Below, one piece after another: positions 4,715 to 25,498 of a stretch of 64,000 bases of DNA. The DNA is from an uncultured Collinsella sp. (GTDB lineage: Bacteria; Actinomycetota; Coriobacteriia; Coriobacteriales; Coriobacteriaceae): the NCBI GenBank assembly GCA_900541195.1, contig UQIY01000004.1, positions 2,492-66,491 of the forward strand, given 5' to 3'. The translations under genes and the position numbers were made by a program. Under the pieces are notes generated by a model. The model had not been told where the DNA came from, made no database searches, and saw nothing but the letters and a program-made list of their open reading frames with translations. Position 1 is the first letter of the stretch. Each line of letters opens with the position of its first letter.

Positions 4715-4740
4715 TCGAGAAAGCTATCGCGTATTGAGTG

Positions 4741-4777
4741 GGCGGGGAGTGCCGTATCGGTGCTCCCCGCCTTTTTG
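4741..4777 (+). terminator. Rho-independent terminator of the oxidoreductase gene
   Basis: GGCGGGGAG (4741-4749) pairs with CTCCCCGCC (4763-4771) and is followed by TTTTT. Confidence 0.75.
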
Positions 4778-4804
4778 TCGATAAGAGGTGCTCTGACCAG
4801 CGGG

Positions 4805-4896
4805 TTCAGAAAATCCGAATCTTGAGCACCCGAAAATCCGAATCCTCAGAACATGAAAATCCGAATCGCTAACACCCGAAAATCCGAATTTGGTGC
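4805..4896. repeat. Four tandem 23-bp repeats with conserved core GAAAATCCGAAT
   Basis: Cores lie at 4809-4820, 4832-4843, 4855-4866 and 4878-4889, an exact 23-bp period. They sit between the 4741 terminator and the 5148 operon. Confidence 0.8.
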
Positions 4897-4968
4897 AAGG
4901 GGATTGGCGCAAGTGGTCATGTTTGTTTGCGCCATGTTGGCACGAAGTAACCTGACCCCTTGCACCAA
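4890..4968. repeat. Nested inverted repeats (potential structured RNA or long hairpin)
   Basis: The outer perfect 13-bp arms are TTGGTGCAAGGGG (4890-4902) and CCCCTTGCACCAA (4956-4968). The inner 8-bp arms are TGGCGCAA (4905-4912) and TTGCGCCA (4927-4934). Confidence 0.5.
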
Positions 4969-5147
4969 GGGTTTGACTTTTAAGACATCATTAAGGCTTG
5001 CGTTGTGGAGCGAACCGCAGGTCAATGCTATTCTTTTACCTTATCGTACGGTGTTGTATTCTGCCTGAATTCTCTACCTGCGAACAACGGATAAACGCGA
5101 CCGAGCGGAAAAGGATGGCAAGCCCGCAAGCAGGGCAAACGTAAGCG

Positions 5148-6164
5148 ATGAGTGGCATGGACCGACATAGCGAGCTCCAGCAGCACATGACGGCGGCCGA
5201 GTACCGCCAAGCTGCCGACGAGCACGTGCGGACCCTCAAGGATTTCTGGAAGGATTTCCTGGTGAGCGGTCTGTTTGTGCTGGCTGCCATCGTTGCCATC
5301 TTTGCATGCCTGGCCTGGTTTGCTGCGAATAACCGAGTGAGCGCCACGGGGGGCACGATCGGGGCGAAGGCGGGGCGCTATAGCCTTACCGCCACCGGCG
5401 AAGGCGAGCCCGACGCCCACACGGGATATTACGAGCGCACGGGCGCCGAAAAGCAAAACATCACGAGGCTCGATACGACGGACGCCATGACGGTAACGCT
5501 GGAATCCAACCTCAACAACGAGTCCGCCGGCTCTCTGTATCCGGGTGCCCGAGGCAAGATTACGTTTACGGTGAAGCCGCTGGTGGATGACCTGAACGGG
5601 GTCACGATCAACTTGTCACGCGTGCTTAAAGTCACGGGCAATGTCGTTGTTGAGGACGGAAAAACGCTGACGTCTGATGCGCAAACGCTCCTTGGCTTGG
5701 CTAAGGGCCATTTGCTGTTCTTTACGAGCTGCCAGAACGGGTACTACTCGGGGCGCGTAGTCGATAGCAAGATCAGGATTGACAAGAGCGAATTTTGCAA
5801 GAAGGGGTCGAGCGAGACCACAGAGTCAAAAGAGGTGAGCCTGTACTGGGTATGGCCGGAGTACTTCCAGAACTTTGTCCTTACGGGCAACACGAATTAC
5901 TACAAGAATCTGTTTGCGGCGGCGGGCGACGCAAAGTCTGACTACGGCGCTCTGCAGGCAGATATGAACGCGCATAAAGCGAACTACTTCTATGGCGCGG
6001 CAAACGGCACAAGTGCTGCCAACGCTCCTGCGGTTTCGGCTGACATGTCCTTCAGCGACGCCGCCATCTGCTCGGCGCTGTACAACAATGCCGACGAGCA
6101 GATCGGCAATAAGGTCGAATACATTCAACTTAGAATTAGCGCTCAGGAGGGCGTGAGCTCATGA
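5148..6164 (+). CDS. Hypothetical signal-anchored exported protein 1 (possible TasA/camelysin-like beta-sandwich), first gene of the giant-protein operon
   Basis: 338 aa. It has a charged N-terminus, then one TM helix (FLVSGLFVLAAIVAIFACLAWFAA), then the aromatic junction LAWFAANN. LYPGARGKITFTVKP resembles the PGD..f.v.N strand of TasA-type proteins. Its stop overlaps the next start. Confidence 0.65.
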   Translation: MSGMDRHSELQQHMTAAEYRQAADEHVRTLKDFWKDFLVSGLFVLAAIVAIFACLAWFAANNRVSATGGTIGAKAGRYSLTATGEGEPDAHTGYYERTGAEKQNITRLDTTDAMTVTLESNLNNESAGSLYPGARGKITFTVKPLVDDLNGVTINLSRVLKVTGNVVVEDGKTLTSDAQTLLGLAKGHLLFFTSCQNGYYSGRVVDSKIRIDKSEFCKKGSSETTESKEVSLYWVWPEYFQNFVLTGNTNYYKNLFAAAGDAKSDYGALQADMNAHKANYFYGAANGTSAANAPAVSADMSFSDAAICSALYNNADEQIGNKVEYIQLRISAQEGVSS

Positions 6165-6967
6165 GCACCATGCAAACGCGCCTCGGCGATGCCCGCAATT
6201 GGATAGAAAACCACCGCGCACAGACCCTCGCGGTCTTGGTGCTGCTCGCGGCCATCATTTTTATCATCGGCCTTACCATGACATGGTTCGTAAGCAGCAA
6301 AAGTTTGTCTACGGTGGGTAAGATTCAAACGCCCGCGCAGCTTAAGATCATGGGTCCCAACCAGACAAGCATTGAGCCCATCGAGATTTCGTATGACGAG
6401 TCGCGCGGCGATGAGAAGAAAGACGACGGCACCGTGACCGTTCGTCGCGCGTTTTGTGTGCGGAGCGACAATGGCGATCCCGCTGCCGGCGGTCAAGCGT
6501 TTGAGCTGCAGGTGGCAAATACCACGAATATCACGGGGCTGACAATCAATGTGTACCACGTGACGGTCAACGAACCGCCGGCAACGAAGGGAGATGTGGT
6601 CGGCCTCGACGGGCTCAACCGCACCTACTCATGGAGCAAGAAGAGCAGCACCCCGATTAAGTTCGCTTTTATCAACTCCGCGGACGGGACAAGTACGTTA
6701 GCTAAGGAGCTTGAGGCAAACGACCCGACGTACGGCTCGTACGTGAATGTCCAGAAAAACGCGCGCCCGCTCTACCGGTATCACGAGTTCACAAAGAGTC
6801 AGCTCGACGGTTACAGCGATAAGAACAAAAGGGCCAACGCCGCCACGAACTTCATCATCGAGTGCACGTGGAATCCGGGCGTTGTGACCGTAAACGGAAA
6901 GACAGTCTCAAACGTCAAAGAGACCGACATGGTCTACCTAATCGCTCGCGGCACGAGCGGCAACTAA
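6161..6967 (+). CDS. Hypothetical signal-anchored exported protein 2
   Basis: 268 aa. AGGAGGG RBS, and the ATG at 6161 overlaps the upstream TGA (ATGA coupling). One TM helix (LAVLVLLAAIIFIIGLTMTWFV) is followed by the junction MTWFVSSKS. Confidence 0.65.
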   Translation: MSTMQTRLGDARNWIENHRAQTLAVLVLLAAIIFIIGLTMTWFVSSKSLSTVGKIQTPAQLKIMGPNQTSIEPIEISYDESRGDEKKDDGTVTVRRAFCVRSDNGDPAAGGQAFELQVANTTNITGLTINVYHVTVNEPPATKGDVVGLDGLNRTYSWSKKSSTPIKFAFINSADGTSTLAKELEANDPTYGSYVNVQKNARPLYRYHEFTKSQLDGYSDKNKRANAATNFIIECTWNPGVVTVNGKTVSNVKETDMVYLIARGTSGN

Positions 6968-6990
6968 TAGCAGGAAGGGAGGGGCGCCAG

Positions 6991-7968
6991 ATGAGGAAAG
7001 ACAAGAACGCACAAAATGAAATCGCAAGGCCTGCCGGCAAGCACTTTGCACAGGTTGACGATCATGCGGCGAAGTCTGCCTTGGCGGAGTCTGCTGCCCC
7101 TAATTCCAAAGTGCGCAAACGCCTGTGGGCAGTTGCGGTGCTGCTGTGCGCCGTCGCGATTGCGACGGGAACCTACCTTACCTACACGGCCTTTTTGGCG
7201 GGTGACTTTCTTAAGTCGGTTGCTGTTTCGGGCACGTCACAGGCGCTGTTTGCCTCGGACATGCTTACGGGCTACACGAATGATACGCTGAATGACGAGG
7301 GGATTGCCGTCCGAAGCGTCATTGCCGACACGAGTGGGGAAAACTGCTCTTTTACCTTTCGCATTTACAACCATCTGCTGGGCGACAAGAACAAGGTCAA
7401 CGACAAGGACGTTAACGCGACGCTGAGCGTGACGGCGACGGGTACGACGAAAGCTTGGAGCATAAGCGGTGAGCCTGCGCTGACGGCGAACGGCACGGTC
7501 GGCCTTTCCTTCCCCGCCAACAAGGCAACCATGTATACCTATAAGGTTACGTTTTCCAAGGCAGACCTCAACAAAGCATCCTTCACCGTTAAGGCCCAGG
7601 TCGGCTCCAATAGCCCTGGCACCAACCTTAAATGGCTCGCCGCCAAGATTGCGCCTTCCGAGCGTGCAGAGGTAACGGCTTCGGGCGTTTCGGGCGAGTG
7701 GGTCGATAAGAACTCGGATATCAACGCTTTCGACGCTTACAACTATCGCGCGACCGTTACGGGCGCGCCAACAAAAATCAAGCTTACATGGGGCGACAAG
7801 GTTGAGCTTGACCCATTTTTGGCGACGAATCATTCCGACGCGACCTTTGATGGAAGGTCGGTTACGTTCACCATGGATCCCGGGTCGGAGATTATTACCT
7901 TTTACCGTTCGACGGATACCGCGCCCGGCAGCTTGGATGACATCGGTGTTACGTGCAGGGCTGCGTAG
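6991..7968 (+). CDS. Hypothetical signal-anchored exported protein 3
   Basis: I prefer the start at ATG 6991 (MRKDKNAQ), which has GGAAGGGAGGGG upstream, over the track start at 6862, which overlaps the previous gene. It has a long charged N-terminus, the TM helix LWAVAVLLCAVAIATGTYLTY and the junction GTYLTYTAF. Confidence 0.65.
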   Translation: MRKDKNAQNEIARPAGKHFAQVDDHAAKSALAESAAPNSKVRKRLWAVAVLLCAVAIATGTYLTYTAFLAGDFLKSVAVSGTSQALFASDMLTGYTNDTLNDEGIAVRSVIADTSGENCSFTFRIYNHLLGDKNKVNDKDVNATLSVTATGTTKAWSISGEPALTANGTVGLSFPANKATMYTYKVTFSKADLNKASFTVKAQVGSNSPGTNLKWLAAKIAPSERAEVTASGVSGEWVDKNSDINAFDAYNYRATVTGAPTKIKLTWGDKVELDPFLATNHSDATFDGRSVTFTMDPGSEIITFYRSTDTAPGSLDDIGVTCRAA

Positions 7969-8032
7969 GCCAACCGCAATCTGTGATTTTGAGACCCCGC
8001 ACGGGGCATGAGATAGAACGAGGTAGGATCAG

Positions 8033-11000
8033 ATGAGAACGGCAAAGCGCATAACAACCGCATGCCTGACTGCGATCATGATTTTCCAGGCGCTTGCGCC
8101 CTCCACGGAGGTGTTCGCGCAAGAGCTCGACGCCGTCATGGAGGCATCCGTCTCCGCCGCGCGCGCCGCGGGCAACACGGCGCGCTCCGTACAGGATGCT
8201 GTGGCCACCGCGCTGCAAGATGCTGACCAGGCTACATCTGATGATGTCGTAACGACTCCGGGCGCCGACGCTGGCGCTACCGAGGGCGGCGACGGTTCTA
8301 CCAACGCTGGCGAATCACAGGACTCCACGACCGATGGAACCACTAACGGCGATACCCCAACGGAGGGCGACGCGTCCCAAGACGATGCGGCTGCCGATGA
8401 GGGTGCTGCTGACGGAGAACAAGCGGATGACGCGGACGCGGATGCTGCTGATCAGGCAAACACCGCCCCCACCATCGCTACTGTCGAGGATCTCAGGCAC
8501 GCGTTGGGTGACGGCAATGTCATCACTGACGACTTGGGCGCCGTCACGGCCATTACCTTTGAGTCCAACGCCGACCTTATCGCCATCTCCAACACCGATC
8601 CCGCCATCTACCAGAACGCGAACATCTCCAAAGGTGGCTCGACCGGCATCGACTTCGACGTGTGCGGCGCGGAGATCGTGGACGGCCTGGGTAGCCTCAC
8701 GTTCCAGGGCTTCGGCAGCGATGCCTACCCTTTCAAAGGCGCGCTCAACCTCGGCGACAGGACCCTGACCGTCAACAAGACGCTCTTCAACAACATCGAG
8801 CTTAGTGACGATAACAGCAGCGTAAAGCTCACTTGGAAGGGCACCGATGCCCAGCCCATAGTGGCCGCAAAGGTCGCGGGCGCGGACAAGACGCTTGCTG
8901 CCACCGTTACCGTGGGCACGCCCAAAAGCGATACCGAAAAGGACATCTGCAAGCTCACCTCGCCGCTTGTGGGCGAGGTCACGGGCGCGCTTACACTTAA
9001 TGCCACCTACACGACAAGCGCGAACAGCCCCCTGGCGGTCGATATGCAATCGAGCGCAGGCAACATGGGCTTGCTTGTGAACACCCTTGCCGAAGGAGCA
9101 TCGCTTACGCTTGCGGGCCTCGCCCTGCCGGACAAACTCGACGGTACCCCCACTATCAACGCGACAGCCGATGGCGCCAACGCAGGAGGCCTTATCGGCG
9201 AGGCGCGGGAGGGTGCCACCGTCGCCCTACCAACTGGCATCGATGTCTCGGCGCTGAGCGTCGCAGGTAAAAACGCGGCGGGCGGTCTTATCGGTAAGGC
9301 CACCAACCTCACGCTCAACATCGCTGATGGCGTAACGGTTAAGCCGGCGTGCAACGTCGGCGATAAAGACAGCGCTTGCTCCGGTGGCGTCATCGGCGAC
9401 GTGAGCTTTGCGCAAGGATTTATCGTTAAGCCCAATATGTTCGACCTGGGCAAGCTTGTGACGCTTGGTGCATCGCAACGCGCCGGCGCCCTTTTTGGTG
9501 TGGCCGATATTTCTAATGGCGACATCGTGGTGCAAGGCGGAACGTATAAGAGCAAGTTCACCTTACCGGAAGGAGTTAGCTTCAACGGCAGCTACGGCGG
9601 CCTTGTCGGCAAGGTGTTTGCGACGGCAAAAGGCGTCGATGAGTCGCTGCGCGCCTTTGTGGTCCAAAAGGATGCGGATAAGAAAACGTGCTCAATTGAG
9701 TTTGAACTTGCGGGCAAGCTGTCCGATACGGGCGGTGTTGTTGGCTATGTTGGCGATAGCGCGGACTCCAATTCGCAGCCTGTCGCCGTTGTGCTCGACG
9801 GCGTGACGGTTGCGTGCAAGGGAGATGCTTCGGCGCGAACGGACGCCGGAAAGTTCGGTGGTGCCGTGGGCGTTGTCGACGCGCGCAATGTCCTTGACGT
9901 GCGAGATTTCAAACTTACAAGCGACAATCCTATCGGTAAGGCGCAAAGCAACCGTGCCGCGGGAATTGCAGGCTCCGCGTGGAATGCTGTAATCAAATTC
10001 AGCGGCATCACGGATCTGTCGGGCGCAAGTTTTGCCGAAAACAGCACGACGGGCCAGCTCGTATACGAGAACCACAACGCGCTGATTTTTGCTGTCGGCG
10101 ATGGCTCTGACGCTGACAAGGGTGCAGCGGGCTGGACCTTCAAACGTAGCAATACTGCCTCGAAGACGGACGACATCGCGACCTACGGCGAAGTTATTCG
10201 TCTGGGCGGCGACTTCATTAAGCTTGATGTGGACACTCATAAGTTGACCTTGCCGGATTCGCTGACGGCAGCTAACGGTGCCTACACCCTAACCTCTGTT
10301 GAGGATTTCGCCAAACTTGCAATCACCTGGCAAACCAACGGCTACTACTCCATGGTCGAGGGCGTTTCCGAAAACAACCCGAACATCTTGCAGTCCTCGA
10401 CCATTACGGTGAACGGCACTATTGATCTCAAGGGCACGGGCCTGACGGGTTTCACGCAGAATCGTGCAGACGGCTCGCAAGTTTTCTCGGGAACGTTGAA
10501 CGGCGGCGGCACAAATGGCAACGGCACAATCAACCTTGCCGTCGGCGAGCCGTACGGCAAGCGTGGTGAAGCTGTGCTCGACGGCAATGACACGAGCAAC
10601 GGCAACGGCAAAATCTACCGCCACGGCCGCTTGGGCTTGTTCGCGGCCGTCAACGGCGCAACCATCTCCAACGTCACAATCGCTGGTTCCATGAAGTTCG
10701 ATAACGGTTCGGCTATCGATGCCGGGTCGCTTGCAGGTACCATCGTCGGCAACCTGCCATTGTCTGGCGTAACGTGCAAAACGAATATCGCGTGTGATGA
10801 TACGTTCGGCAACGAAGTGAACATTGGTGGTATTGCGGGCAGCGTGTCGGCGGCTTCTACGGTTGCGTTTAAGGATAACAGCAGGGCTCAAGCGACCATC
10901 GCTGCAACTAAAACGCTTAACGGCAATAGTCGCATTGGCGGCGCCATTGGTTATGTGGGCGATTATGGCTCGTCATTCAATGTTGCGGGCCTCGAAGTCG

Positions 11001-14000
11001 CCGGATCAATCGAAACCGGCAATTGCACCAGCGGCAAGATTGCCCAGGTCGGTGGCTTTATCGGCTGCATTGCTCAGGGATCGAACGAGAAGAACGTTAC
11101 CATTACCGGTCTTAGCTTTAGTGAATTCGCTATGACCGTGGGCAAGAACGGCGACAAGTTCAACGGCGCCGGTGGTCTTCTGGGCTACAGCTGGGGCAAC
11201 GCCATCGTCACCATTGGCGATACTACTGCGAATACCAGCGGCAGCACCTACGCCCTCAAAACTACCAACAACACGACCGTGACTGCAGAAAACTCTACCG
11301 AGGTCGGCGGCCTCGTATACGCCGCCAGTGGCCACTGGATCATCAATAATTATGCTATCAATTTGGCCAACGCTTCCTTTACCGCTAATAGCGCAACCAC
11401 GCTTGGCGTTCTTATTGCTCGCGGCAGTACATCCGATTCAAATAGCTTTGGTGCCGAGACCAACTATAACGGTCTATATCTGGAGGACAGGGCTTGGTGG
11501 GGTACCGCTTATGCTGTGAATGGCGTGTCTATAACCGCCCCAAAGGTAAAGACATACGACGAATGGCTTGCAAATGGCGTGAAGCCCGAAAGTAATCTGA
11601 TTGATAACGGCTGCAATGCGGTTGTCTCGCTTCATACCGAGGACCAAAAGCTGGACATGAGCGGAGATCCTGCTAGAGATAATAGTTATCGAAATCGCAT
11701 CGCCCCCGCTAATCCTTCTGATAGCTTTCCGCAAACAAATGGTTCTGTTCGCTACTACTACAATCTTGACAAAGCGTATACGGCGGTAGGCAACAAGCCG
11801 GAAAACGCTAGCAAAGACAATTGGATGAACTCCGCAGAGTACTTATTACTTTGGTGTGCGTACCTGTATGCTCCTAGCGCGATTCAGGGCTATATCATTC
11901 CGGGAAATCAGGCTATTTTCCAAGGAAACAATATTGGCACGAGCGACAGCGCGGGCGTGGAAATCAATTTAGATGGATACAGTTTCTATCCTACTGACCC
12001 CGCGAAGGGCTCAACGGTTACTGTGAATAATGCAACGATTACGTTCCATTATTCCGACATTAAAGATGAGCAAGAAGGTAACAAAAAGAATAGCGAAGCC
12101 ACGCAGCACGAAAATATGCACTGCGCTCTCATCGGAACCCATACGGGCAGCCTCAAGGTTAAAAATGTCACGCTTGCAGGCACCGTGGGCTCCGTTGTGA
12201 ACGATGCGGGAAGTTCGTCCGGTGCACTTGTGTGCTGCTGTATCTATGGGCCCATCAATGAGACTAATGTGGCACAGCTCGAGATAGATGGTCTGACACT
12301 TGACGGCTTGAAGGTCGACGGTGTGAACGGCTATACCAGTTACGCCCCTCTGCTTATCAACGAGATGCAGACATGCGTGAACCTGAGCGCTAAGAATATT
12401 TCAACCCTTAGTTACGCGAAAGGGGCCACGGCGGCAACCTCGCTCTTCGGCAGGCTCGGCGTGGGAAACAATTCCGATCAGGTGACGGCGAAGTTTGAGC
12501 AAATCAGCTTGCCCAGCCAAAAGAACAATACGATCTTCACCCATGCGAGCCTGCTGGAGAGTTTTGGCTACGGAAGCACGAGCACGGGTTCTGCGGACTA
12601 CACCTTTACTAAGGCCGATGCCGATGCAGGCAAGGTGACATACGGATCTGAGATTGATGGGAGTACGGAGTACCCGGGCAAGCAGCTTTGGTATTACGAC
12701 GAAGCGACGTATGGTGCCGTGAGCGGCTATGTGACGGTTGATGGTAAGAAGGACGGTGACGTCAGGCCTTGGTTCGGTGACTACCTTCCTTATGTTTACA
12801 AGGGAAAAGCCGCCGAGGATGGCGTCCAGTATCACGAAATTAAAGTCAACCAGCGCATTCCAAAGCTGGTAATGGGATGTGGTACCTACGGCGATCCTTA
12901 TTCCGTCACAAACGCGGCGGAGATGAATGCCATTGCCAACTACATTAATAACATGACGGCGCTTGACGGCTGGGAGGTCACCATTGTCGCCGACCAGGGT
13001 AGGCTCTGCACTCGCCGCAGCAGCGATCACTCGACCGACAATGAGGTTACGTACGTCTACAAGCAGGCGAACGGTACCGATAATAAATGGGAGAAGAAGA
13101 CCGGAGACGCGTCGACCAATTCCCCGCAGACGCTGAGCGACGAAACCATGCACCGCTATATGCAGAGCGCGTATTACAGCATCGAGCCTACTGAGGGCAA
13201 TACGATTACTCTCGACGGCGCATCGTTTGGCGGTTTTGGAAATAGGGCCAACCCGTTTAGGGGCGTCATCGTTGGCAACTTTGGCAGTGATAATAAAAAC
13301 GCAACCATCAAGATAGAGAATAACGAGGGTTCGCTTCGCGGCCTTATTCCCTATAGTTACGGCAGCGTGGTGCGCGATCTGAATATTCGCTATGTGAACG
13401 CGTCGGCGACTATTACTTATTCTGCCAAGGATGCCGACGGCGTTCCGACGGCGTTTTTCGGTGGCGTTGTCGGCTGCATCCTTGGTGGCGATAACATTAT
13501 CGATGGCGTGGTCGTTAATGGGACGACGGCCGAAAACCCTACAACGGGATTTACCGTCACGGGCGGTGGCGACAAGCCGCATCTTGTTCCCATTGGTGGC
13601 TACGTCGGTGCCATTGCGGGTGGCGGCGTGATTTTCCGCAATATGGACAAAAGCGGAAAATCTTCCTGGCGTGCTGGAACTGGTGACAAATCTCGTGGTC
13701 TGGGAAAGGGCAACTTTGATCTCTACAACAATCCCTACGTCGGTCGCGTGATTGATGGCTATGCCTTTAGCGAGGGCTGTAAGGTTGAAAACGGTAACGC
13801 TAACTACCAGATTAACGAGCTCACAAAAAAAGGAACCCCCTGTGTCACCACCACGGGCACCGACAACAAGTACCTCGGCACTAACGCCGAGGCTCCTGTG
13901 ACCATGGTGAAAAACGCCCAGGGCCTTTTGGTGCTCTCGGCCATCATCAGCTCGGGTGCGGGTGCTGGCGCGGCACATACCAACTACTCCAATAATGGCG

Positions 14001-17000
14001 TGTTCCGCGGTTCCAAGGCTTACTGGGGCAGCGATTCGCAAGACCCGGCGATATGCGGCTACCTGTTTGGCAACAAGGAATATGGCAAGGTACGGAATGC
14101 TAACTACGCAAATGTGGGCAAGCCTGAGAGTGCTGCCGGCGATTTCGAAATCGCCAAAAACGACGACCAGAAGGCCCCCGGCAAGCAGGGGTGGCACGGC
14201 CCGCTCGACCATGATGACGATGTAAATTCGCCCTACCTGGTGGCGTCCTACGCTGCCGACTACCAAACGGGCTATGTGTGCGCGTCGAAATCGATCGGCA
14301 TGAGCTTGGAGTTCAAGCAGGGCGACACCTACGATATGACCGACTACGGCACGGGGTACGTGGGCCTAAACGGCCGCTACTATTCCAATGCCTGCAATTC
14401 GAACCAGCCGGGCACCGACCGAGACCGTATTACGCCGCACGTAGCCACGATCGACGGTAACGGCGCCACCATCACGGTGGGTACCGAAGGCACCGCCTAC
14501 GGCGTCGTCGAATACGCCGACGACGACTATAAGGTCTCGGGCGTGGGTGGTCTATTCAGCACCGTGATGTTCACCTCCACCAATGTGGGGCAGAGCGTCA
14601 CCGCGAACGACGGCGCGCAGGTCAAAGACCTCACCTTTAGCAACTGCAACGTAGCGCTCACCTATATCGACACCAACGGCGAAGCCAAACCAGGAGAGGC
14701 GCCGAACGACCTTACCGGTGCCGGCCTTTTGGCGGGTGCAACGGCCAACTACGACGACGGCACGTGCGGCATCTACCGCAACGTGCAGATGAAGAACTGC
14801 ACCGTGTCGGGCGCAAAGAGCGTAGGAGGGCTTCTTGGCAGCTCGGGCCGCGCCAGACGAACTACGAGCGAAGACAGAACCTATATGGTCGAGTTCGGGG
14901 ACGGGTGGGGCCCCGCGTATCTCTATGACTGCTCATACACTGGCCTTAACGTCACGGGCGAGAAGAATGTCGGTGGCTATGTGGGTGCGGTCGCCTCGGC
15001 GTGCGGTGTGTGGACAACCGCAGGCACAGGGGTGAGCGAAAGGACCGTTGGCAAAAACTCGACCATAACTGCCACAGGGACAGTGCCCTACGTGGGCGGC
15101 GTGCTCGGCTATGTCGAAAGAAGCGATATCTCGGTCAACACCAACATCGGCACCACTACAGCGGCCCAGTCGTCGTGCACGGCAGTCATCTCTGGGGTAA
15201 ACGTGCTAGCCACCGGGTCGAACTCCGATGACCATATGGGCGCCGGCGGCGTGGTCGGACGCGCCCGTGGCGGCGTTATTTCTATGAGCAACGTGCGCAT
15301 TGATGGCGGAAACGGCACCGAGAACGCCGTCATCGGCGATAAGGCCGGAACGAACAATAGCATCTACAATGCGGGCGGCCTGATTGGTGAGGTTACGAGT
15401 AGCGGTAGCCCCAACAAGTACTGGTTCGACGACTGCAGTGTCAAGAATGTCAGCATCGCCGGCACCGGCAAATGCTCGGGCGGGCTTATCGGCTACTTCT
15501 TCAGCAATGTGAATATAGCCTGCAACAACATCGCGATCGAGAACGCTACGATTAAGGGTAACTGGAGCGGCGGTCTGCTGGGCGCGAATAACGCGAGTAA
15601 CAGCGGACCCGTCGTCATCGACGTTACCAACACAAAGGTATCCAACACCACGTTTAGCGAAAGGTCCAACGGCGGCATTATGGGCGACGGGCGCGGCCAG
15701 TTCCATCTGTTAAACGTGCTCATGGACAGCAATAGCTACAATGCGGGCAAAACCCAGGGCGTACTCTTGGGCGAGGTTGACACGGGGGATGGTAAGTACA
15801 GCCTTTCCGCAGCGGGCGTGGAAGTAAAGCCCGGTAGTGGCAAGACCACGAGCGACCTGCCGCCGATGGTTTACACGACCAATACGAATACGGCTGCTGT
15901 TAACGAGAAAACTTATATTGCCTTCGGCGACTACAACGGCACGGCTGCCGCGCCCAACGAGAACAAAACGCTTTACGGCGCAGGCGATACTGCTACCACG
16001 GCAACGAGTCCGTACGTGACCACGAGGCCCGTGAGCACGCTGGCGGTGCGTGCCTCCGACGGCGACACCACCGACCGCTACCTGTTTGGCGACGGCGCCG
16101 CCATTGACACCGCGACGACCATCCAAAGCCAAGCGGGTGCCCGCGTTCCCGGCCGCTACACCTACACCAACATCGCCGGCATCAATGATGCCGGCGCATA
16201 CCAAAACACGAGCACCTATAGCGCGGACAGCTCGCGTAGCACCTATAACGCTAACAACATTACTTCGGACAAGAAGGCCAAAACTGACTTCCCCGTGCTC
16301 GTGATTCCGGGCAACGATACCACGACGGTGGAGAGCTACCTGAACATCGTGACCAATGGCGGCTTCTCCGATGCCCGCCGCCTCAACGGCAGCACCGCGC
16401 ATGTGACCGCCACCGCCGAGGTCTTCTCGCTCGCCGATAACGGCACCTTCGTCAAGGACGTAGCCGCCTCGCAAGCGCCCACGCTCAAGGTGCTCAACAA
16501 TGGCACGAGCTCTATGGCATTCCGCGCGAGCACCGACTGGGACAATGAGCAGGGGCGCTTCACGCTGCTTACGGTCACCTTTAGCGAGGCCGGCCAGAGC
16601 TACCGTGTACAGGTACCCATCATCGTCAAGCGCATGCTCGAGATCGACTTTACCGCCACCTACTCCGAAGGTGCGAACTTCAAGGCTGCCGACTATGCGA
16701 CAAAATACGACAAGCACGTACTTGTGAGCAGCGGCGACACCATGACCGGCTACCTTACCTGGACCTATGGCAGCGCTCGGGGCAAGCCGGTCGATTACGG
16801 CTGGAACACGCTGCTCGAAGCCGGCGGCTCTATGGGTCCGCTCAACAAGAGCATTACCTTCGGTGCCACGCTGCCCGAGGGTACACAGCTCACACTCGTG
16901 GACACGGCCAACAACAGCCGCGAATATCACTACACGGTGGGCACGGGCGGCGCGACGTCAGTCAGGCTCACCGAGTTTGTGGACGCTGGCAACAAGGCTT

Positions 17001-18661
17001 ACTACACCGAACCGTGGCTGAGCGAAATCGTGGGCGTGAAGGCCGATGAGGCCAAGGAGGACAAGGACGGCGCTTGGGTCAAGCTCGCCGATGACGAGGT
17101 CAAGGACAAGAGCCAGGCCGAACTCGCGAAGATGGCTGGCGCCAAGGTCGATGGCGCGTACTACCGCGCGCGCACTTCTTCCGACGCGACGGGCACGTTC
17201 TATACCCTCTCCGTTGATAAGGAAGAGCCCAAGAGCGAAAACTTCTACTTGGTGGTGCGCACGCCGGCGGGGTCCGTGGGCGTCAACGGCTACACCGCCA
17301 CCACGGTGGACACGAGCCTCAACGAGCACATCAACTACCTGCTGCGAGGCAAGAAAGCAGCCGACGGCAAGGCTGCCGAGGATGGGCACCAGAATACGCC
17401 CTCGACCTATAGCGTGGCATCAAACTACACGCACAGCCTCGTTGACAACAAGCGTAACCTCGTCGACAACAGGGACAGCATCAACCGGATGGAGCTCAAG
17501 GAAGCCACCTATTCGCTTTCCATGAACGTGAGCGACACCGTGACGTTTGACTCGAGCCAGCAATACACGAGCTCTGACGCGCTGTATTATCAGCTCGATT
17601 CGTCGCTTGTCACCTATCACGATGGCGTCATCGCGGGCTCGGTAGGATACCCCACGGGCACGCAGGGCACGTATGAGTTCTACGTTAAGGTGGGTGATAA
17701 CTACTACACCTGGGGCGGGTCGGGTTGGAATCTGGCCGGCACGAAGGAGACCCCAGTGGTGTCGGGCCTTAGTTGGACTGCGAACGGTGGCGACATGTCA
17801 CTGGTGCTTGCCGATGCTGAGGGTAATCCCATCGACATGTCGGGCCTGCGCGAGATCGCCAAGAACCATGTCAACGCCTTCACCGTTACCATGAGGGCCG
17901 CGCTCACCATGACGGAGCCTGCCTGCCAGGCGGGTATCGTGGCCTCGCAGAACAGCGGCACCGACCGCTACACCAAACCCAACTACCGCGCGTACCTTTC
18001 CACGCATGCCGACACGCTCAGCACCAGTAGCAACTCGGCATACAACGATGGCGGCGCCGGCTACTACCGTATGGATGTGGGCTCATCGACCATCGCGCTC
18101 GAGGCGTCTAAGAAATCCCAGTTGGGCATCAACATCGATGACCTCAAGTCCGCTGACGGCGAGATCGCTCTGGTGGGTACCTACGACCTGAGCAAGCTCA
18201 CGGGCGCCGAGGCTAAGATCGACGCCGCAAGCACGGTGACCTACACGCTGAGCCTGGAGCAGCGGCAAGATAATGGCGGCTATGCTCCGGTCGGCGATAT
18301 CTCGAACTACATTACGGTGCTCGGCAGCGATTACCTAGGCACGGGTGCGGCATCCGCCGACGGCAACAGCTATGTGTTCACCGACACCAAGACCAACGGC
18401 GCGTTCCTCACGCGCGACGGCAACAGCCTTGCCTTTAAGCATGCCTTCCGCGTTAAAGTGAATACGAATGTTGAGGGTGAGAACCAAACTTACGCAAACT
18501 ACCGCTTGGTGCTTACGGCCAATATTATGACCGGCAACGTTGTCGACGACACACCGGTCAACGTTAGCAACCTTGATGGCTATTCGCACTCCGACTACGT
18601 GACGTACACGCTAGCGCGCATCAACACCGAGGGCATTCGGCACGAGACGAAAACCAACTAG
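8033..18661 (+). CDS. Giant (3,542 aa) secreted GLUG-motif / beta-helix-like repeat protein, putative adhesin or surface fibre; no recognisable wall anchor
   Basis: Uninterrupted ORF with a Sec signal (MRTAKRITTACLTAIMIFQALAPSTEVFA-QE), then an acidic D/E/T/G-rich spacer. More than 25 GG[LVI][LVI]G GLUG-like motifs occur (NAGGLIGEA, AAGGLIGKA, GGVIGD, GGLVGKV, VGGLLGSS, GAGGVVGRA and others). A GTYGDPYSVTNAAEMNAI module start is typical of GLUG-domain proteins. There is no C-terminal LPXTG. Confidence 0.85.
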   Translation: MRTAKRITTACLTAIMIFQALAPSTEVFAQELDAVMEASVSAARAAGNTARSVQDAVATALQDADQATSDDVVTTPGADAGATEGGDGSTNAGESQDSTTDGTTNGDTPTEGDASQDDAAADEGAADGEQADDADADAADQANTAPTIATVEDLRHALGDGNVITDDLGAVTAITFESNADLIAISNTDPAIYQNANISKGGSTGIDFDVCGAEIVDGLGSLTFQGFGSDAYPFKGALNLGDRTLTVNKTLFNNIELSDDNSSVKLTWKGTDAQPIVAAKVAGADKTLAATVTVGTPKSDTEKDICKLTSPLVGEVTGALTLNATYTTSANSPLAVDMQSSAGNMGLLVNTLAEGASLTLAGLALPDKLDGTPTINATADGANAGGLIGEAREGATVALPTGIDVSALSVAGKNAAGGLIGKATNLTLNIADGVTVKPACNVGDKDSACSGGVIGDVSFAQGFIVKPNMFDLGKLVTLGASQRAGALFGVADISNGDIVVQGGTYKSKFTLPEGVSFNGSYGGLVGKVFATAKGVDESLRAFVVQKDADKKTCSIEFELAGKLSDTGGVVGYVGDSADSNSQPVAVVLDGVTVACKGDASARTDAGKFGGAVGVVDARNVLDVRDFKLTSDNPIGKAQSNRAAGIAGSAWNAVIKFSGITDLSGASFAENSTTGQLVYENHNALIFAVGDGSDADKGAAGWTFKRSNTASKTDDIATYGEVIRLGGDFIKLDVDTHKLTLPDSLTAANGAYTLTSVEDFAKLAITWQTNGYYSMVEGVSENNPNILQSSTITVNGTIDLKGTGLTGFTQNRADGSQVFSGTLNGGGTNGNGTINLAVGEPYGKRGEAVLDGNDTSNGNGKIYRHGRLGLFAAVNGATISNVTIAGSMKFDNGSAIDAGSLAGTIVGNLPLSGVTCKTNIACDDTFGNEVNIGGIAGSVSAASTVAFKDNSRAQATIAATKTLNGNSRIGGAIGYVGDYGSSFNVAGLEVAGSIETGNCTSGKIAQVGGFIGCIAQGSNEKNVTITGLSFSEFAMTVGKNGDKFNGAGGLLGYSWGNAIVTIGDTTANTSGSTYALKTTNNTTVTAENSTEVGGLVYAASGHWIINNYAINLANASFTANSATTLGVLIARGSTSDSNSFGAETNYNGLYLEDRAWWGTAYAVNGVSITAPKVKTYDEWLANGVKPESNLIDNGCNAVVSLHTEDQKLDMSGDPARDNSYRNRIAPANPSDSFPQTNGSVRYYYNLDKAYTAVGNKPENASKDNWMNSAEYLLLWCAYLYAPSAIQGYIIPGNQAIFQGNNIGTSDSAGVEINLDGYSFYPTDPAKGSTVTVNNATITFHYSDIKDEQEGNKKNSEATQHENMHCALIGTHTGSLKVKNVTLAGTVGSVVNDAGSSSGALVCCCIYGPINETNVAQLEIDGLTLDGLKVDGVNGYTSYAPLLINEMQTCVNLSAKNISTLSYAKGATAATSLFGRLGVGNNSDQVTAKFEQISLPSQKNNTIFTHASLLESFGYGSTSTGSADYTFTKADADAGKVTYGSEIDGSTEYPGKQLWYYDEATYGAVSGYVTVDGKKDGDVRPWFGDYLPYVYKGKAAEDGVQYHEIKVNQRIPKLVMGCGTYGDPYSVTNAAEMNAIANYINNMTALDGWEVTIVADQGRLCTRRSSDHSTDNEVTYVYKQANGTDNKWEKKTGDASTNSPQTLSDETMHRYMQSAYYSIEPTEGNTITLDGASFGGFGNRANPFRGVIVGNFGSDNKNATIKIENNEGSLRGLIPYSYGSVVRDLNIRYVNASATITYSAKDADGVPTAFFGGVVGCILGGDNIIDGVVVNGTTAENPTTGFTVTGGGDKPHLVPIGGYVGAIAGGGVIFRNMDKSGKSSWRAGTGDKSRGLGKGNFDLYNNPYVGRVIDGYAFSEGCKVENGNANYQINELTKKGTPCVTTTGTDNKYLGTNAEAPVTMVKNAQGLLVLSAIISSGAGAGAAHTNYSNNGVFRGSKAYWGSDSQDPAICGYLFGNKEYGKVRNANYANVGKPESAAGDFEIAKNDDQKAPGKQGWHGPLDHDDDVNSPYLVASYAADYQTGYVCASKSIGMSLEFKQGDTYDMTDYGTGYVGLNGRYYSNACNSNQPGTDRDRITPHVATIDGNGATITVGTEGTAYGVVEYADDDYKVSGVGGLFSTVMFTSTNVGQSVTANDGAQVKDLTFSNCNVALTYIDTNGEAKPGEAPNDLTGAGLLAGATANYDDGTCGIYRNVQMKNCTVSGAKSVGGLLGSSGRARRTTSEDRTYMVEFGDGWGPAYLYDCSYTGLNVTGEKNVGGYVGAVASACGVWTTAGTGVSERTVGKNSTITATGTVPYVGGVLGYVERSDISVNTNIGTTTAAQSSCTAVISGVNVLATGSNSDDHMGAGGVVGRARGGVISMSNVRIDGGNGTENAVIGDKAGTNNSIYNAGGLIGEVTSSGSPNKYWFDDCSVKNVSIAGTGKCSGGLIGYFFSNVNIACNNIAIENATIKGNWSGGLLGANNASNSGPVVIDVTNTKVSNTTFSERSNGGIMGDGRGQFHLLNVLMDSNSYNAGKTQGVLLGEVDTGDGKYSLSAAGVEVKPGSGKTTSDLPPMVYTTNTNTAAVNEKTYIAFGDYNGTAAAPNENKTLYGAGDTATTATSPYVTTRPVSTLAVRASDGDTTDRYLFGDGAAIDTATTIQSQAGARVPGRYTYTNIAGINDAGAYQNTSTYSADSSRSTYNANNITSDKKAKTDFPVLVIPGNDTTTVESYLNIVTNGGFSDARRLNGSTAHVTATAEVFSLADNGTFVKDVAASQAPTLKVLNNGTSSMAFRASTDWDNEQGRFTLLTVTFSEAGQSYRVQVPIIVKRMLEIDFTATYSEGANFKAADYATKYDKHVLVSSGDTMTGYLTWTYGSARGKPVDYGWNTLLEAGGSMGPLNKSITFGATLPEGTQLTLVDTANNSREYHYTVGTGGATSVRLTEFVDAGNKAYYTEPWLSEIVGVKADEAKEDKDGAWVKLADDEVKDKSQAELAKMAGAKVDGAYYRARTSSDATGTFYTLSVDKEEPKSENFYLVVRTPAGSVGVNGYTATTVDTSLNEHINYLLRGKKAADGKAAEDGHQNTPSTYSVASNYTHSLVDNKRNLVDNRDSINRMELKEATYSLSMNVSDTVTFDSSQQYTSSDALYYQLDSSLVTYHDGVIAGSVGYPTGTQGTYEFYVKVGDNYYTWGGSGWNLAGTKETPVVSGLSWTANGGDMSLVLADAEGNPIDMSGLREIAKNHVNAFTVTMRAALTMTEPACQAGIVASQNSGTDRYTKPNYRAYLSTHADTLSTSSNSAYNDGGAGYYRMDVGSSTIALEASKKSQLGINIDDLKSADGEIALVGTYDLSKLTGAEAKIDAASTVTYTLSLEQRQDNGGYAPVGDISNYITVLGSDYLGTGAASADGNSYVFTDTKTNGAFLTRDGNSLAFKHAFRVKVNTNVEGENQTYANYRLVLTANIMTGNVVDDTPVNVSNLDGYSHSDYVTYTLARINTEGIRHETKTN

Positions 18662-18670
18662 CTACGCGAG

Positions 18671-18701
18671 GGGCGGCAACCACCCGGTTGCCGCCCTTTT
18701 T
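18671..18701 (+). terminator. Rho-independent terminator of the giant gene
   Basis: Perfect 11-bp stem GGGCGGCAACC / GGTTGCCGCCC, ACCC loop, then TTTTT. Confidence 0.85.
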
Positions 18702-18737
18702 CTTGTTCGCTTGGCCTACTGCTGCCCCAGCTCTCCA

Positions 18738-18826
18738 CCAACTTTCCAGCTTTCCACTTAACTTACCACTCAAGGTGGAAAGCTGGTAAGTTAGGTGGAA
18801 AGCTGGTAAGTTAGGTGGAAAGTTGG
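18738..18826. repeat. Left copy of the repeat array bracketing the Schlafen-like gene
   Basis: It has inverted 12-mers CCAGCTTTCCAC (18746-18757) and GTGGAAAGCTGG (18775-18786) with a 17-nt loop. Direct copies of GTGGAAAG(C/T)TGG follow at 18795 and 18815, a 20-bp period. The 41-bp hairpin core is 40/41 identical to 20354-20394. Confidence 0.85.
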
Positions 18827-18844
18827 AAAGTTGGGAGGTTCGGC

Positions 18845-20314
18845 ATGAATGAGGAGTGGTTGGCGCAGGTTATCCATCATCTGCGGGCAATAGGAAACGA
18901 CACCCAGCAGTACGAAGTAAAAGAAGCCAAGGGCGCGCTCCCCAAAAGCATCGTCGAGACGCTTTCGGCATTTTCCAACGCGCAGGGCGGCTTTATCATC
19001 CTCGGCATTTCCGAAAAGAACGGGTTTATGCCCGTCGAGGGTTTTGATGCCCGCAAGATGCAAGACGCCCTCTCTTCTGCATGTGAAAAGCTGACGCCCG
19101 TTGTGAGGCCGGATATCCAAGTGCTCCCCTTCGAGGGTAAGCTGGTGCTTTGCGCGCGCATCAAAGAAATGCATCCACGCGATAAACCCTGCTATATTGC
19201 GGCACGCGGAATGTACGATTCGTCCTTTATCCGTACGGGCGACGGCGACCGGCGCATGACTCCCTACGAAATCGATCGCTTTATGGAGGAGCATGTTCAG
19301 CCTACATACGACGACGAGCCGGTCGAAGGTGCCACGCTCGATGACCTTGACGCCGATCTTTTGCAAGGGTTTATAAAACGCCAGCGCGAGCTACACCCTA
19401 GGCTTTTGGGCACCAGAAGCGACGATGAGATTCTCCTTGACCTGCATGTGACCAAAAGGGTGGACGACGCAATCGTGCCGACGCTTGCTGCAATTGTCGC
19501 GATGGGACGGTTTCCGCAAAAGTTCTTCCCACGTCTCAATGTGACCTTTACGGCGTACCCCGGGACCACAAAAACGCAGCGAGTAAGTGATAACAAGCGT
19601 TTTGTGGATTCTCAGACCATTTTGGGTCCGATCCCTTTCATGATTGAGGACATGCTTGCCGCCGTTGCGAGAAACACCCGAAACGCAGCGGTTATCGAGG
19701 GCGCGTTCCGGAAAGATGTGCCCGATTATCCGCCCGTGGCGCTGCGCGAGGCGGTGGCGAACGCGCTCATGCACCGCGACTACTCTTCCGCCGCGCGCGG
19801 CTCACAAGTGCAGGTCAACCTGTATATCGACCGCGTCGAGATTCTCAATCCCGGCGGGCTGTACGGCGACGTAACGATCGATTCGCTGGGAGTTTCTGGG
19901 GTTTCGTCATCCAGAAACCAGTTCCTTTCAAATATCCTCGAGACCACGCCGTACCCAGACGGTGGCTACGTGGTCGAAAATCGCGGCACTGGTTATCAGG
20001 AGATAGGTGAGCAGCTCGAGCGGGCAAACATGTTGCCGCCCGAACCAAAGAACTCGACAGTTTCTTTTTCGTTGACGTTCGATAAGCGAAAGATAATGCG
20101 GGCGGAACAGGTGACGTCTGTGGGGCATGTGGACGAGGCAATCTTGGATTACCTGGCAACACATTCTTCGGCCTCGACCAAGGAGCTCACCGACGCTTCG
20201 GGTTTGAGCAGGAGCGCCGTTTCCAACCACATAAAAGGCTTGATTGGTGCGGGCAAGATTGAGGCGATGGAGCCTCCGCGCAGCCCGCGACAACGGTATC
20301 GACTCGCGAAGTAG
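18845..20314 (+). CDS. AlbA_2 (Schlafen-like, 'divergent AAA') + HATPase_c_4 (RecG-C-terminal-like) + C-terminal winged-HTH protein (COG2865 type)
   Basis: I prefer the start at ATG 18845 (MNEEWLAQV), which has GGGAGG 6 nt upstream. The track start GTG 18815 lies inside the repeat. Motifs: ..QQYEVKEAKG..AFSNAQGGFIILGI (AlbA_2), REAVANALMHRDYS...VEILNPGGLYG (HATPase_c_4), and a C-terminal ILDYLATHSSASTKELTDASGLSRSAVSNHIKGL wHTH. Confidence 0.75.
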   Translation: MNEEWLAQVIHHLRAIGNDTQQYEVKEAKGALPKSIVETLSAFSNAQGGFIILGISEKNGFMPVEGFDARKMQDALSSACEKLTPVVRPDIQVLPFEGKLVLCARIKEMHPRDKPCYIAARGMYDSSFIRTGDGDRRMTPYEIDRFMEEHVQPTYDDEPVEGATLDDLDADLLQGFIKRQRELHPRLLGTRSDDEILLDLHVTKRVDDAIVPTLAAIVAMGRFPQKFFPRLNVTFTAYPGTTKTQRVSDNKRFVDSQTILGPIPFMIEDMLAAVARNTRNAAVIEGAFRKDVPDYPPVALREAVANALMHRDYSSAARGSQVQVNLYIDRVEILNPGGLYGDVTIDSLGVSGVSSSRNQFLSNILETTPYPDGGYVVENRGTGYQEIGEQLERANMLPPEPKNSTVSFSLTFDKRKIMRAEQVTSVGHVDEAILDYLATHSSASTKELTDASGLSRSAVSNHIKGLIGAGKIEAMEPPRSPRQRYRLAK

Positions 20315-24165: not shown

Positions 24166-24177
24166 GAGGCGGCATCC

Positions 24178-25493: not shown

Positions 25494-25498
25494 GGTCC

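Follow-up and report, generated by a model that had tools for sequence, protein, structure and literature searches.

A conserved P1-P2-P3-giant cassette of Coriobacteriia and Clostridia, apparently an undescribed variant of TasA/BsaA-type sortase-independent surface systems

The stretch of DNA considered here, which we call the window, comprises 64,000 nucleotides of contig UQIY01000004.1 from an uncultured Collinsella sp. (GenBank assembly GCA_900541195.1). Within it lies a cassette of four genes, in which three small proteins, P1, P2 and P3, are encoded together with a predicted secreted protein of 3,542 residues, the giant. The same cassette, with its genes in the same order, is found in dozens of loci from two phyla, and the small proteins share an N-terminal module with a junction that resembles the signal-peptidase site of TasA. 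The cassette is apparently an undescribed variant of the sortase-independent surface systems of the TasA/BsaA type. As to how it works, our proposal is a tentative one, to which we would give slightly less than an even chance: P1, P2 and P3 would be cleaved and form a stalk or base on which the giant is displayed as an adhesin.

The four genes and the element that closes them are arranged as follows.

5148-6164, forward strand: P1, open reading frame (ORF) of 338 amino acids (aa)
6161-6967, forward strand: P2, ORF of 268 aa, whose ATG overlaps the P1 stop codon as ATGA
6991-7968, forward strand: P3, ORF of 325 aa with an ATG start, after a 23-nucleotide gap
8033-18661, forward strand: the giant, ORF of 3,542 aa, after a 64-nucleotide gap
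18668-18699 (listed feature span 18668..18709), forward strand: terminator-like element closing the operon, a 14-pair G+C-rich hairpin with a T-run, of the intrinsic type

This arrangement is a real operon, a single co-directional unit. Reading the ORFs of the window reproduced all of the coordinates that the first-pass annotation had given, including the overlapping ATG at 6161 and the two gaps, and the terminator that it had placed 3' of the giant is there as the hairpin and T-run listed above. The start of P3 at 6991 agrees with public gene calls, which leave an alternative GTG at 6862 unused. The oxidoreductase gene upstream has a terminator of its own at 4740-4772, and the flanking genes are unrelated to the cassette; they encode a flavin mononucleotide/flavin adenine dinucleotide (FMN/FAD) oxidoreductase, a Schlafen/AlbA_2-HTH regulator and hydrogenase/complex-I-like subunits. 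The G+C content of the cassette is slightly lower than that of its flanks (57% versus 61-63%).

Conservation of the cassette was assessed by scanning species-representative genomes and metagenomes with subfamily alignments as queries, which yielded 61 further loci; cassette genes in these were called with hidden Markov models (HMMs) of the P1, P2 and P3 families and with BLAST for the giant. Of about 60 related loci, roughly 45 show the order P1-P2-P3-giant, which appears wherever the contig extends far enough and is kept across two phyla, in Coriobacteriia and Clostridia, at protein identities of 20-35%. Conservation of four genes on this scale is far beyond chance. The hosts are Collinsella, Blautia, Coprococcus, Dorea, Schaedlerella, Ruminococcus, Mediterraneibacter and Clostridium fessum, together with rumen and human-gut metagenomes, and high-G+C relatives within the Coriobacteriia account for three of the loci (L008, L044 and L046). 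Even distant metagenomic homologues of P1 (33-38% identity) are followed by a P2-like gene, a P3-like gene and a large truncated ORF. The small proteins thus do co-occur with a giant in other genomes, a point on which the first-pass annotation had staked its proposal of a coupled system. No further paralogues of the P1, P2 or P3 families occur in the 64-kb window, and wider homologue searches started from P1 and from the P3 alignment returned only near-identical clusters from Collinsella or Blautia, with no extra diversity. An apparent host in Bifidobacterium catenulatum (locus L015, CAVCCL010000017.1) was rejected: the contig has a G+C content of 45%, its P3 clusters with a Coprococcus locus, and its cassette proteins are >= 90% identical to proteins of a Coprococcus metagenome-assembled genome (MAG). 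This contig has almost certainly been misbinned in a public MAG.

Departures from the standard layout were also recorded. One Schaedlerella contig (CAKSAJ010000025.1) carries two complete cassettes in tandem (L009 and L021), the P1 copies of which are only ~25% identical. At six loci (L050, L053, L058 and L062-L064) the giant precedes P1-P2 and no P3 homologue was detected; up to four more proteins of ~270-400 aa follow, which match the P1 HMM weakly (E about 1e-6 to 1e-8) and carry the same N-terminal motif. In Blautia and Coprococcus, two additional 'YAWF' proteins, small A and small B, are encoded directly upstream of P1.

All four proteins lie outside the curated libraries. Neither P1, P2, P3 nor the giant has a Pfam or NCBIfam family above cut-off, scans extended to 87 relatives of P1, 38 of P3, several orthologues and four homologues of the giant brought none either, searches of PDB sequences with single sequences and with family profiles gave no match, and all of the named NCBI relatives of P1 and P3 are labelled 'hypothetical protein'. 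In an exhaustive search the P1 family amounted to 453 clusters at 50% identity, with full-length members of ~300-400 aa and a series of invariant or near-invariant motifs (AWFxxN, PGxxGxLxFYVxP, GHILFF, YWVWP and YNxADxxIG); 87 diverse members had no relevant Pfam family, and their profile had no PDB match. P2, which adjoins P1 in essentially every locus, is characterized by the motifs YAWF, T..KIK.P..L.I, HTTN, VQ.HAEPLYW and a C-terminal KETDxxY, and is again without a Pfam or PDB match. Pairwise BLAST among P1, P2 and P3 found no homology, and their globular parts are not detectably homologous. Variation between strains is unevenly spread over these proteins. Some Collinsella variants of P1 (P0140 and P0143) are identical to the P1 of the window over the first ~66 residues, which take in the cytoplasmic region, the helix and the junction, and only ~50% identical over the ectodomain. 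This mosaic of constant N-terminus and variable ectodomain is reminiscent of the variation seen in pilins or antigens. In strains with a divergent P1 ectodomain P3 hardly changes, while P1 and P2 vary.

What P1, P2 and P3 have in common is an N-terminal module consisting of a hydrophobic helix, a junction and the next ~20 residues, in which small residues at positions -3 and -1 are followed by an aromatic pair (A↓WF or A↓AY, the arrow marking the predicted cut). Alignment of the N-termini with hhalign gave a probability of 94% for P1 with P2 and of 68% for P2 with P3. The junctions in the window are these.

5307..5330, forward strand: P1 junction, residues 54-61, C-L-A↓W-F-A-A-N; predicted cut A56/W57, where the hydrophobic helix (~38-58) ends
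6275..6289, forward strand: P2 junction, residues 39-43, T-M-T↓W-F; predicted cut T41/W42
7180..7194, forward strand: P3 junction, residues 64-68, T-Y-T↓A-F; counterpart of GGSFA↓AYTSQ in Lachnospiraceae and GGGTWA↓AFND in TasA; predicted mature start A67

The motifs to which attention had first been drawn (LAWFAANN, MTWFVSS, TYLTYTAF and LYPGARGKITFTVKP) all occur in the window and coincide with the best-conserved columns of large families. Across 87 members of the P1 family, -3 is C, T, S, G, A or V and -1 is A, G or S without exception (87/87 each); the W is likewise found in 87/87, the F in 84/87 and N61 in 75/87. In 43 P2 sequences -1 is A in 39, T in two, S in one and G in one, and -3 is V, T, S, A or I, with W in 43/43 and F in 39/43. 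The 38 P3 sequences have T or S at -3 in 29 cases, A (33), T (4) or S (1) at -1, A at +1 in 27 and Y or F at +2 in every one (38/38). P3 carries a 44-residue N-terminal extension in Coriobacteriia only; its Lachnospiraceae orthologues have short, classical signal peptides (MKxTxRPKxK...GGSFA↓AYTSQ).

The same combination of -3/-1 residues and aromatic pair is found in TasA, the junction of which reads T-W-A↓A-F-N-D, with a mature N-terminus, A28, that was confirmed against PDB 8aur. When compared with an alignment of 48 TasA/CalY sequences, the N-termini of P2 and P3 gave borderline hhalign probabilities of 53% (E 1.3e-4) and 48% (E 1.8e-4), respectively, and these alignments span only the signal peptide and about 40-60 mature residues. 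One P2 orthologue matched the first 34 positions of PF12389 below threshold (E 0.067, 13.4 bits versus a cut-off of 22.5), a family that all true TasA relatives carry. The resemblance to TasA/SipW-class signals noted in the first-pass annotation is therefore upheld by the residue pattern and by the borderline profile matches of P2 and P3; formal membership of the TasA/camelysin family or of the TIGR04088 signal class is not, the cut-offs of PF12389 and TIGR04088 going unreached. On sequence grounds, P1, P2 and P3 are best described as a TasA-class N-terminal module joined to novel ectodomains rather than as members of the TasA family. That P1 might be a lipoprotein, as the Cys in FACLAWF could imply, was rejected: Cys occupies this column in only 28/87 sequences.

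Structure prediction points to different folds for the ectodomains of P1 and P3. The AlphaFold2 model of P1, built on the 87-sequence alignment (predicted local distance difference test (pLDDT) 87.8), is confident and consists of a long helix (16-61) and a beta-sandwich with flanking helices, between which residues 64-74 are left unplaced. Foldseek ranks the TasA fibre 8aur_A first among PDB entries (E 4.3e-3, probability 0.80, template modelling (TM) scores 0.22/0.30), a likeness to the TasA fibre fold that is suggestive only. The P3 model (33 sequences; pLDDT 75.7 as a whole, rising to about 85-94 within residues 90-325) leaves residues 1-41 and 60-84 unplaced and has an all-beta body at 90-325 made up of two immunoglobulin-like (Ig-like) sandwiches, which is not a TasA-like fold. 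Its Foldseek matches include the fibril form of Vpr (E 2.7e-6), CfaB/CfaE, FimA pilins, the adhesins FnBPA and SdrG, and many antibody Fab fragments; this similarity would be compatible with a pilin-like or adhesin-like subunit. That the three small proteins have one fold in common is not supported, and no homology is detectable beyond the N-terminal module. The P1 segment 64-74 and the P3 segment 60-84, both with pLDDT < 50, hold strongly conserved residues just past the junction. Segments that remain unplaced in the monomer models in this way behave as donor strands would if their place were in a neighbouring subunit, an arrangement described for TasA and BsaA (PMC9674648, PMC11580942).

The giant has a different type of signal, and the features by which it can be described are as follows.

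8033..8119, forward strand: signal peptide, residues 1-29, MRTAKRITTACLTAIMIFQALAPSTEVFA↓QE, of the ordinary Sec/signal peptidase I type, with a probable cut at the A-x-A-like VFA
9185..9871, forward strand: first motif cluster, seven GG[LV][IV]G-type motifs ~32-45 residues apart (residues 385-613)
10826-11185, forward strand: second motif cluster (residues 932-1051)
14825-15685, forward strand: third motif cluster (residues 2265-2551)
18479..18658, forward strand: C-terminal conserved module (...YANYRLVLTA...SDYVTYTLARIN...), a candidate docking element

The signal lacks a TasA-class junction and is succeeded by an acidic low-complexity spacer. A regular-expression search counted 20 GG[LV][IV]G-type motifs in the three clusters, and from composition and motifs the G/T/N/S-rich body is predicted to be beta-helical. 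The designation of the protein as a 'GLUG' giant reflects a resemblance seen by eye: the giant matches no NCBIfam family and, at E <= 1, no Pfam family, GLUG (PF07581) included, and four homologous giants (8,706 residues) match no Pfam family at E <= 0.1. Beyond the signal peptide it has no hydrophobic segment, no LPXTG motif and no recognizable anchor. It is homologous along its whole length to the giants of related loci, and giants from Schaedlerella and other Clostridia loci terminate in the same motif as the Collinsella protein, YxNY[RK]VxL...[ST]DY[IV]xYT[NL]A[RK]I, even though overall identity is about 25-30%. A role as a toxin or in contact-dependent inhibition was considered and rejected, as there is no toxin/immunity domain and the C terminus is conserved, not polymorphic. 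A patch of the giant gene at ~11077-12347 (residues ~1015-1440) gives no megablast alignment to Collinsella strains that are otherwise 96-99% identical, and lies in the part of the window with the lowest G+C content (53%); judged from these comparisons it may be recombining or hypervariable, and is possibly exposed.

The neighbourhoods of related loci add a further element. At L040, a locus from the rumen, an archaeal-type signal peptidase is encoded 2.4 kb from P1, in a divergent operon with an EAL protein and a transmembrane protein of the family that we call tm237; the peptidase scores 95.7 bits against TIGR02228 (cut-off 51.85) and E 5e-33 against the SipW model. In Blautia sp. MSJ-19 (L013), a partial SipW-like homologue (blastp 1e-8) lies at the locus edge, 9.6 kb upstream of the cassette, and the genes run sipW-like (partial)-PilZ-tm237-small A-small B-insertions-P1-P2-P3-giant. 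The order in Coprococcus is dCache-HD-GYP-REC, hybrid kinase with Hpt, PilZ, tm237, small A, small B and the cassette, and no peptidase is encoded within 10 kb. At least one lineage thus has a SipW-type enzyme linked to the cassette, and another has a partial homologue, but the enzyme is not a core part of the cassette. Genes for cyclic di-GMP (c-di-GMP) functions and signalling (PilZ, EAL, dCache-HD-GYP-REC and hybrid histidine kinases) recur in the Lachnospiraceae neighbourhoods. The tm237 family comprises single-pass membrane proteins of 237-412 aa that adjoin PilZ and the extra 'YAWF' proteins in Lachnospiraceae loci (for example, L040 2207-2917(-), L013 1113-2132 and L017 6162-7397); it has no Pfam or NCBIfam match and is absent from the Collinsella window. 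In Blautia sp. MSJ-19, the insertions that separate P1 from the accessory genes include a 'drum' small RNA (RF02958, 92.5 bits) at L013 4947-5058 and, at L013 7264-9570, two near-identical genes that appear by eye to encode Rpn/transposase-like nucleases.

Signatures of sortase-dependent or type IV pilin-like assembly were not encountered. That the window has no sortase, LPXTG or pilin motif was confirmed by regular-expression and tblastn searches: its ORFs of >= 100 aa contain neither LPXTG with a hydrophobic tail nor the sortase motif TLxTC, and no prepilin-peptidase site (G↓F/M-T-L-x-E) was found in its ORFs. LPXTG and sortase signatures are equally absent from the related loci and from the C termini of their giants. 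Two P3 orthologues match TIGR02523 (PilV) weakly, the better at E 0.0015 and 19 bits against a cut-off of 52.2.

These observations can be brought together in the scheme that we favour. P1, P2 and P3 would be exported by Sec and cut by a type I signal peptidase after the small-x-small site, the enzyme being of the SipW/archaeal type where one is encoded nearby. The cut would expose an aromatic N terminus (WF.. or AF/AY..) and the conserved stretch of ~20 residues, which, by analogy with TasA and BsaA, may serve as a donor strand inserted into the beta-sandwich of a neighbouring subunit. In this way the ectodomains, jelly-roll-like with helices in P1, two Ig-like domains in P3, and that of P2, could build a short hetero-oligomeric stalk or base. 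The Sec-exported giant, which has no anchor of its own, would be held on this stalk, possibly through its conserved C-terminal module, and would provide an adhesive or aggregative surface. In Lachnospiraceae the module is embedded among c-di-GMP and two-component genes, as would be expected of a matrix or adhesion organelle.

Several results weigh against this scheme. The P1 profile has no similarity to the 48 TasA/CalY sequences (hhalign probability 1%), and Foldseek found nothing in the PDB for P1 at E <= 1e-3, the TasA match being weak. PF12389 has no match in P1, P2 or P3 of the window and none in the 87 P1-family members at E <= 0.01. TIGR04088 (cut-off 19 bits) has no match in the window proteins; the best orthologue, a P3, reached 13.1 bits (E 0.085), and only 2/38 P3 members appeared at E <= 1, both below cut-off. 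The Foldseek matches of P3 are generic for proteins with two Ig-like domains, many Fab fragments scoring alike. Charged N-regions of 20-45 residues precede the hydrophobic helix, in P1 and P2 everywhere and in P3 in Collinsella, and that of P1 is conserved and predicted as part of one long, confident helix (16-61); this would be unusual for a signal peptide that is to be discarded, and fits a retained anchor. Finally, regular-expression and tblastn searches found no S26/SipW-like peptidase in the 64-kb window, and a SipW-type enzyme is absent within 6-10 kb of most related loci. The original remark that there is no SipW-type peptidase is hence correct for the window, but does not extend to L040 or, given its partial homologue, to Blautia sp. 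MSJ-19.

The main alternative, which is the model of the first-pass annotation, is a membrane-anchored platform, in which the helices of P1, P2 and P3 are retained as type II signal anchors and the complex receives, folds or tethers the giant at the cell surface, with no polymerization. The long charged N-regions (in P1 conserved among Coriobacteriia, with an unbroken helix in the model at 16-61, pLDDT 79-94), the lack of a dedicated peptidase in the window and most loci, and the failure to reach the TIGR04088 signal model all speak for it, and there is a precedent for membrane retention in BsaA, the oligomers of which are reported to be membrane- rather than wall-anchored (PMC11580942). A permanent anchor, however, offers no reason for -1 to be strictly small (87/87 in P1 and 43/43 in P2) and for -3 to be small or beta-branched, and it does not account for the short, typical cleavable signal peptides of P3 orthologues in Lachnospiraceae, or for the SipW-type peptidase near the cassette in L040 and its partial homologue in Blautia sp. 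MSJ-19. We regard such a platform as possible but rather unlikely. Cleavage of P1 and P3 is favoured because -3 and -1 are strictly small in P1 and because P3 orthologues have short classical signal peptides, and the N termini of all three proteins look like cleavable signals of the SipW class rather than anchors. The description of P1-P3 as signal-anchored, made in the first-pass annotation, is accordingly doubtful, set against the small -1 residue and the C/T/S/G/A/V at -3 in 87/87 P1 sequences and the short P3 signals. Its observation of a long, charged, presumably cytoplasmic N terminus holds for P1 and P2 everywhere; in P3 it is a trait of Coriobacteriia, the region being short in Lachnospiraceae.

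It is improbable that one or more of P1, P2 and P3 act in a non-structural capacity, as extracytoplasmic chaperones or secretion accessories for the giant. There are precedents for assembly factors with SipW-class signals in TapA and CapP, which serve TasA/CalY filaments (PMC10151520; bioRxiv 10.1101/2024.02.27.582368); the small proteins co-occur strictly with the giant, in a fixed order directly 5' of it, and the high conservation of P3 within Collinsella, while P1 and P2 vary, is what might be anticipated of a helper. Yet the ectodomain of P1, at ~50% identity among Collinsella beside an identical N terminus, has the appearance of a surface component under immune or phage selection, and the variant loci in which the giant is accompanied only by P1, P2 and other 'AWF' proteins manage without P3. 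That the four genes encode functionally independent surface or secreted proteins, such as variable antigens or phage-receptor decoys, which are co-transcribed with no physical coupling, is very unlikely: the globular parts of P1, P2 and P3 do lack detectable mutual homology, and the cassette does have a slightly lower G+C content than its flanks and hypervariable patches, but it is difficult to see how, unless the products had a function in common, the gene order could have stayed fixed across two phyla at protein identities of 20-35% and the small proteins could share their N-terminal module.

One further region precedes P1.

4773..5147, forward strand: intergenic region 5' of P1 and presumed location of the promoter, with repeats and an inverted repeat read in the sequence

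Within it, GAAAATCCGAAT is present four times in 4808-4885, and an inverted repeat, TTGGTGCAAGGGG...CCCCTTGCACCAA, lies at about 4889-4969. No sigma-70-like site was found in 4773-5147, the region 5' of P1 has no Rfam match, and no riboswitch, for c-di-GMP or otherwise, was detected 5' of the cassette, either in the window or at eight related loci. At the junction 4892/4901, a 1.4-kb gene for an AAA_14/DUF4143 ATPase is missing. Other Collinsella strains have this gene in the interval from the oxidoreductase to P1 (for example, at L001 6512-7910), as does the distant Coriobacteriia locus L046. The GAAAATCCGAAT repeats are situated just 5' of this junction and the inverted repeat spans it, which suggests that the ATPase gene is a small mobile or excisable cassette. 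The repeat-rich, structured upstream region that had been described is therefore real, but it is not obviously a control region dedicated to the operon, because the repeats lie at the junction of this indel.

On the other side of the operon, directly 5' of the Schlafen/AlbA_2-HATPase_c_4-HTH gene (18815-20314), GGTGGAAAGCTGGTAAGTTAG occurs twice in tandem at window positions 18745-18835, accompanied by one more copy that is degenerate and by one in inverted orientation (CCAGCTTTCCACTTAACTTACCAC). The array may be an operator, in a style akin to the repeats 5' of the missing AAA_14 gene. Further downstream, at 21283-26587, is a gene cluster that resembles a membrane-bound complex I or group-4 [NiFe]-hydrogenase, with a fused Proton_antipo_M/NADHdh subunit and 20-kDa, 30-kDa and 49-kDa/NiFeSe subunits; this cluster has no connection with the cassette.

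The closest described system is sipW-bsaA-bsaB-bsaC of Clostridium perfringens, followed by tapA-sipW-tasA. In the former, TasA-like donor-strand subunits are coupled to a larger secreted partner (PMC11580942, PMC7395162). The two systems have in common small subunits with TasA-class signals encoded in an operon with a larger secreted protein, independence from sortase, two-component regulators nearby and a proposed donor-strand type of assembly, and BsaA is reported to be associated with the membrane rather than the wall. They differ in that the operon described here has no sipW and no PF12389, encodes three mutually non-homologous subunits in place of two TasA homologues, and has a partner that is not a 70-kDa vWA protein but one of 3,542 aa, which bears an ordinary Sec signal and lacks any Pfam domain. 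TasA fibres form by donor-strand exchange (PMC9674648), and with the tapA-sipW-tasA system of Bacillus and sipW-tasA/calY/capP of B. cereus (PF12389; PDB 8aur and 5of1) the cassette shares the small-aromatic-A↓A/W-F/Y junction past the hydrophobic core, a conserved mature N-terminal segment that is a candidate donor strand and, for P1, the top structural match. In contrast to Bacillus TasA and camelysin, its globular domains are not detectably homologous to those proteins, its N-regions are longer, its operon lacks a peptidase and its partner is a giant.

Other comparisons are more distant. P3 resembles the CFA-I and chaperone-usher pilins (CfaB, CfaE and FimA) and the microbial surface components recognizing adhesive matrix molecules (MSCRAMMs) SdrG and FnBPA in having two Ig-like sandwiches, and its matches include donor-strand-complemented pairs and dock-lock-latch adhesins; these proteins, however, are either Gram-negative and usher-dependent or anchored through LPXTG and sortase, neither machinery is present here, and the similarity is of a generic Ig-like kind. 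The WxL/Csc clusters of Enterococcus and Lactobacillus likewise encode a large extracellular protein alongside several small surface proteins, which are displayed non-covalently and largely without sortase, and a WxL-interacting protein (9i1y_A) is among the weak Foldseek matches of P1 (probability 0.54), but the signal and junction module of the cassette is different, and no Pfam match to WxL, DUF916 or DUF3324 was obtained for the four cassette proteins or 87 P1 relatives. As with GLUG-motif and giant beta-solenoid proteins such as Giant1-5 of Apilactobacillus kunkeei (PMC12863079), the giant has no classical wall anchor; unlike them, it has no Pfam GLUG or DUF5776 domain, and the A. kunkeei giants have not been reported with small partners of the TasA class.

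The claim that no characterized system has this composition stands as far as Pfam, NCBIfam, the PDB and the literature searched are concerned, and no description of a P1-P2-P3-giant cassette was found in that literature. What sets it apart from the known systems is the combination of non-homologous subunits, the absence of a core peptidase, long N-regions and a Pfam-less partner of ~3,500 aa, in gut commensals of two phyla. A more ambitious extension, which we put forward as a possibility and think doubtful, is that it represents a distinct, hitherto unrecognized class of Gram-positive surface organelle, common in commensals of the human gut and the rumen, in which three heterologous subunits with a TasA-class export and donor-strand module in common would build, without sortase, a membrane-proximal stalk that bears a giant beta-helical adhesin (~3,500 residues) through the conserved C-terminal module of the latter, with P1, P2 and a patch of the giant diversifying between strains.

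Few genera of the human gut are as abundant as Collinsella, Blautia, Coprococcus, Dorea and Ruminococcus, and little has been established of the means by which they attach to mucus, to food particles or to each other. It is in this setting that 13.5 kb of a genome is devoted to four proteins without annotation in the curated libraries, which are nevertheless kept across two phyla and the exposed parts of which vary from strain to strain. Should the cassette indeed build a TasA-like fibre with a giant adhesin on display, commensals of the gut would join the biofilm models of Bacillus and Clostridium as users of donor-strand assembly without sortase, and giant exoproteins without LPXTG would have a route by which to be anchored. 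Four new protein families, and with them a testable colonization factor, would thereby be defined.

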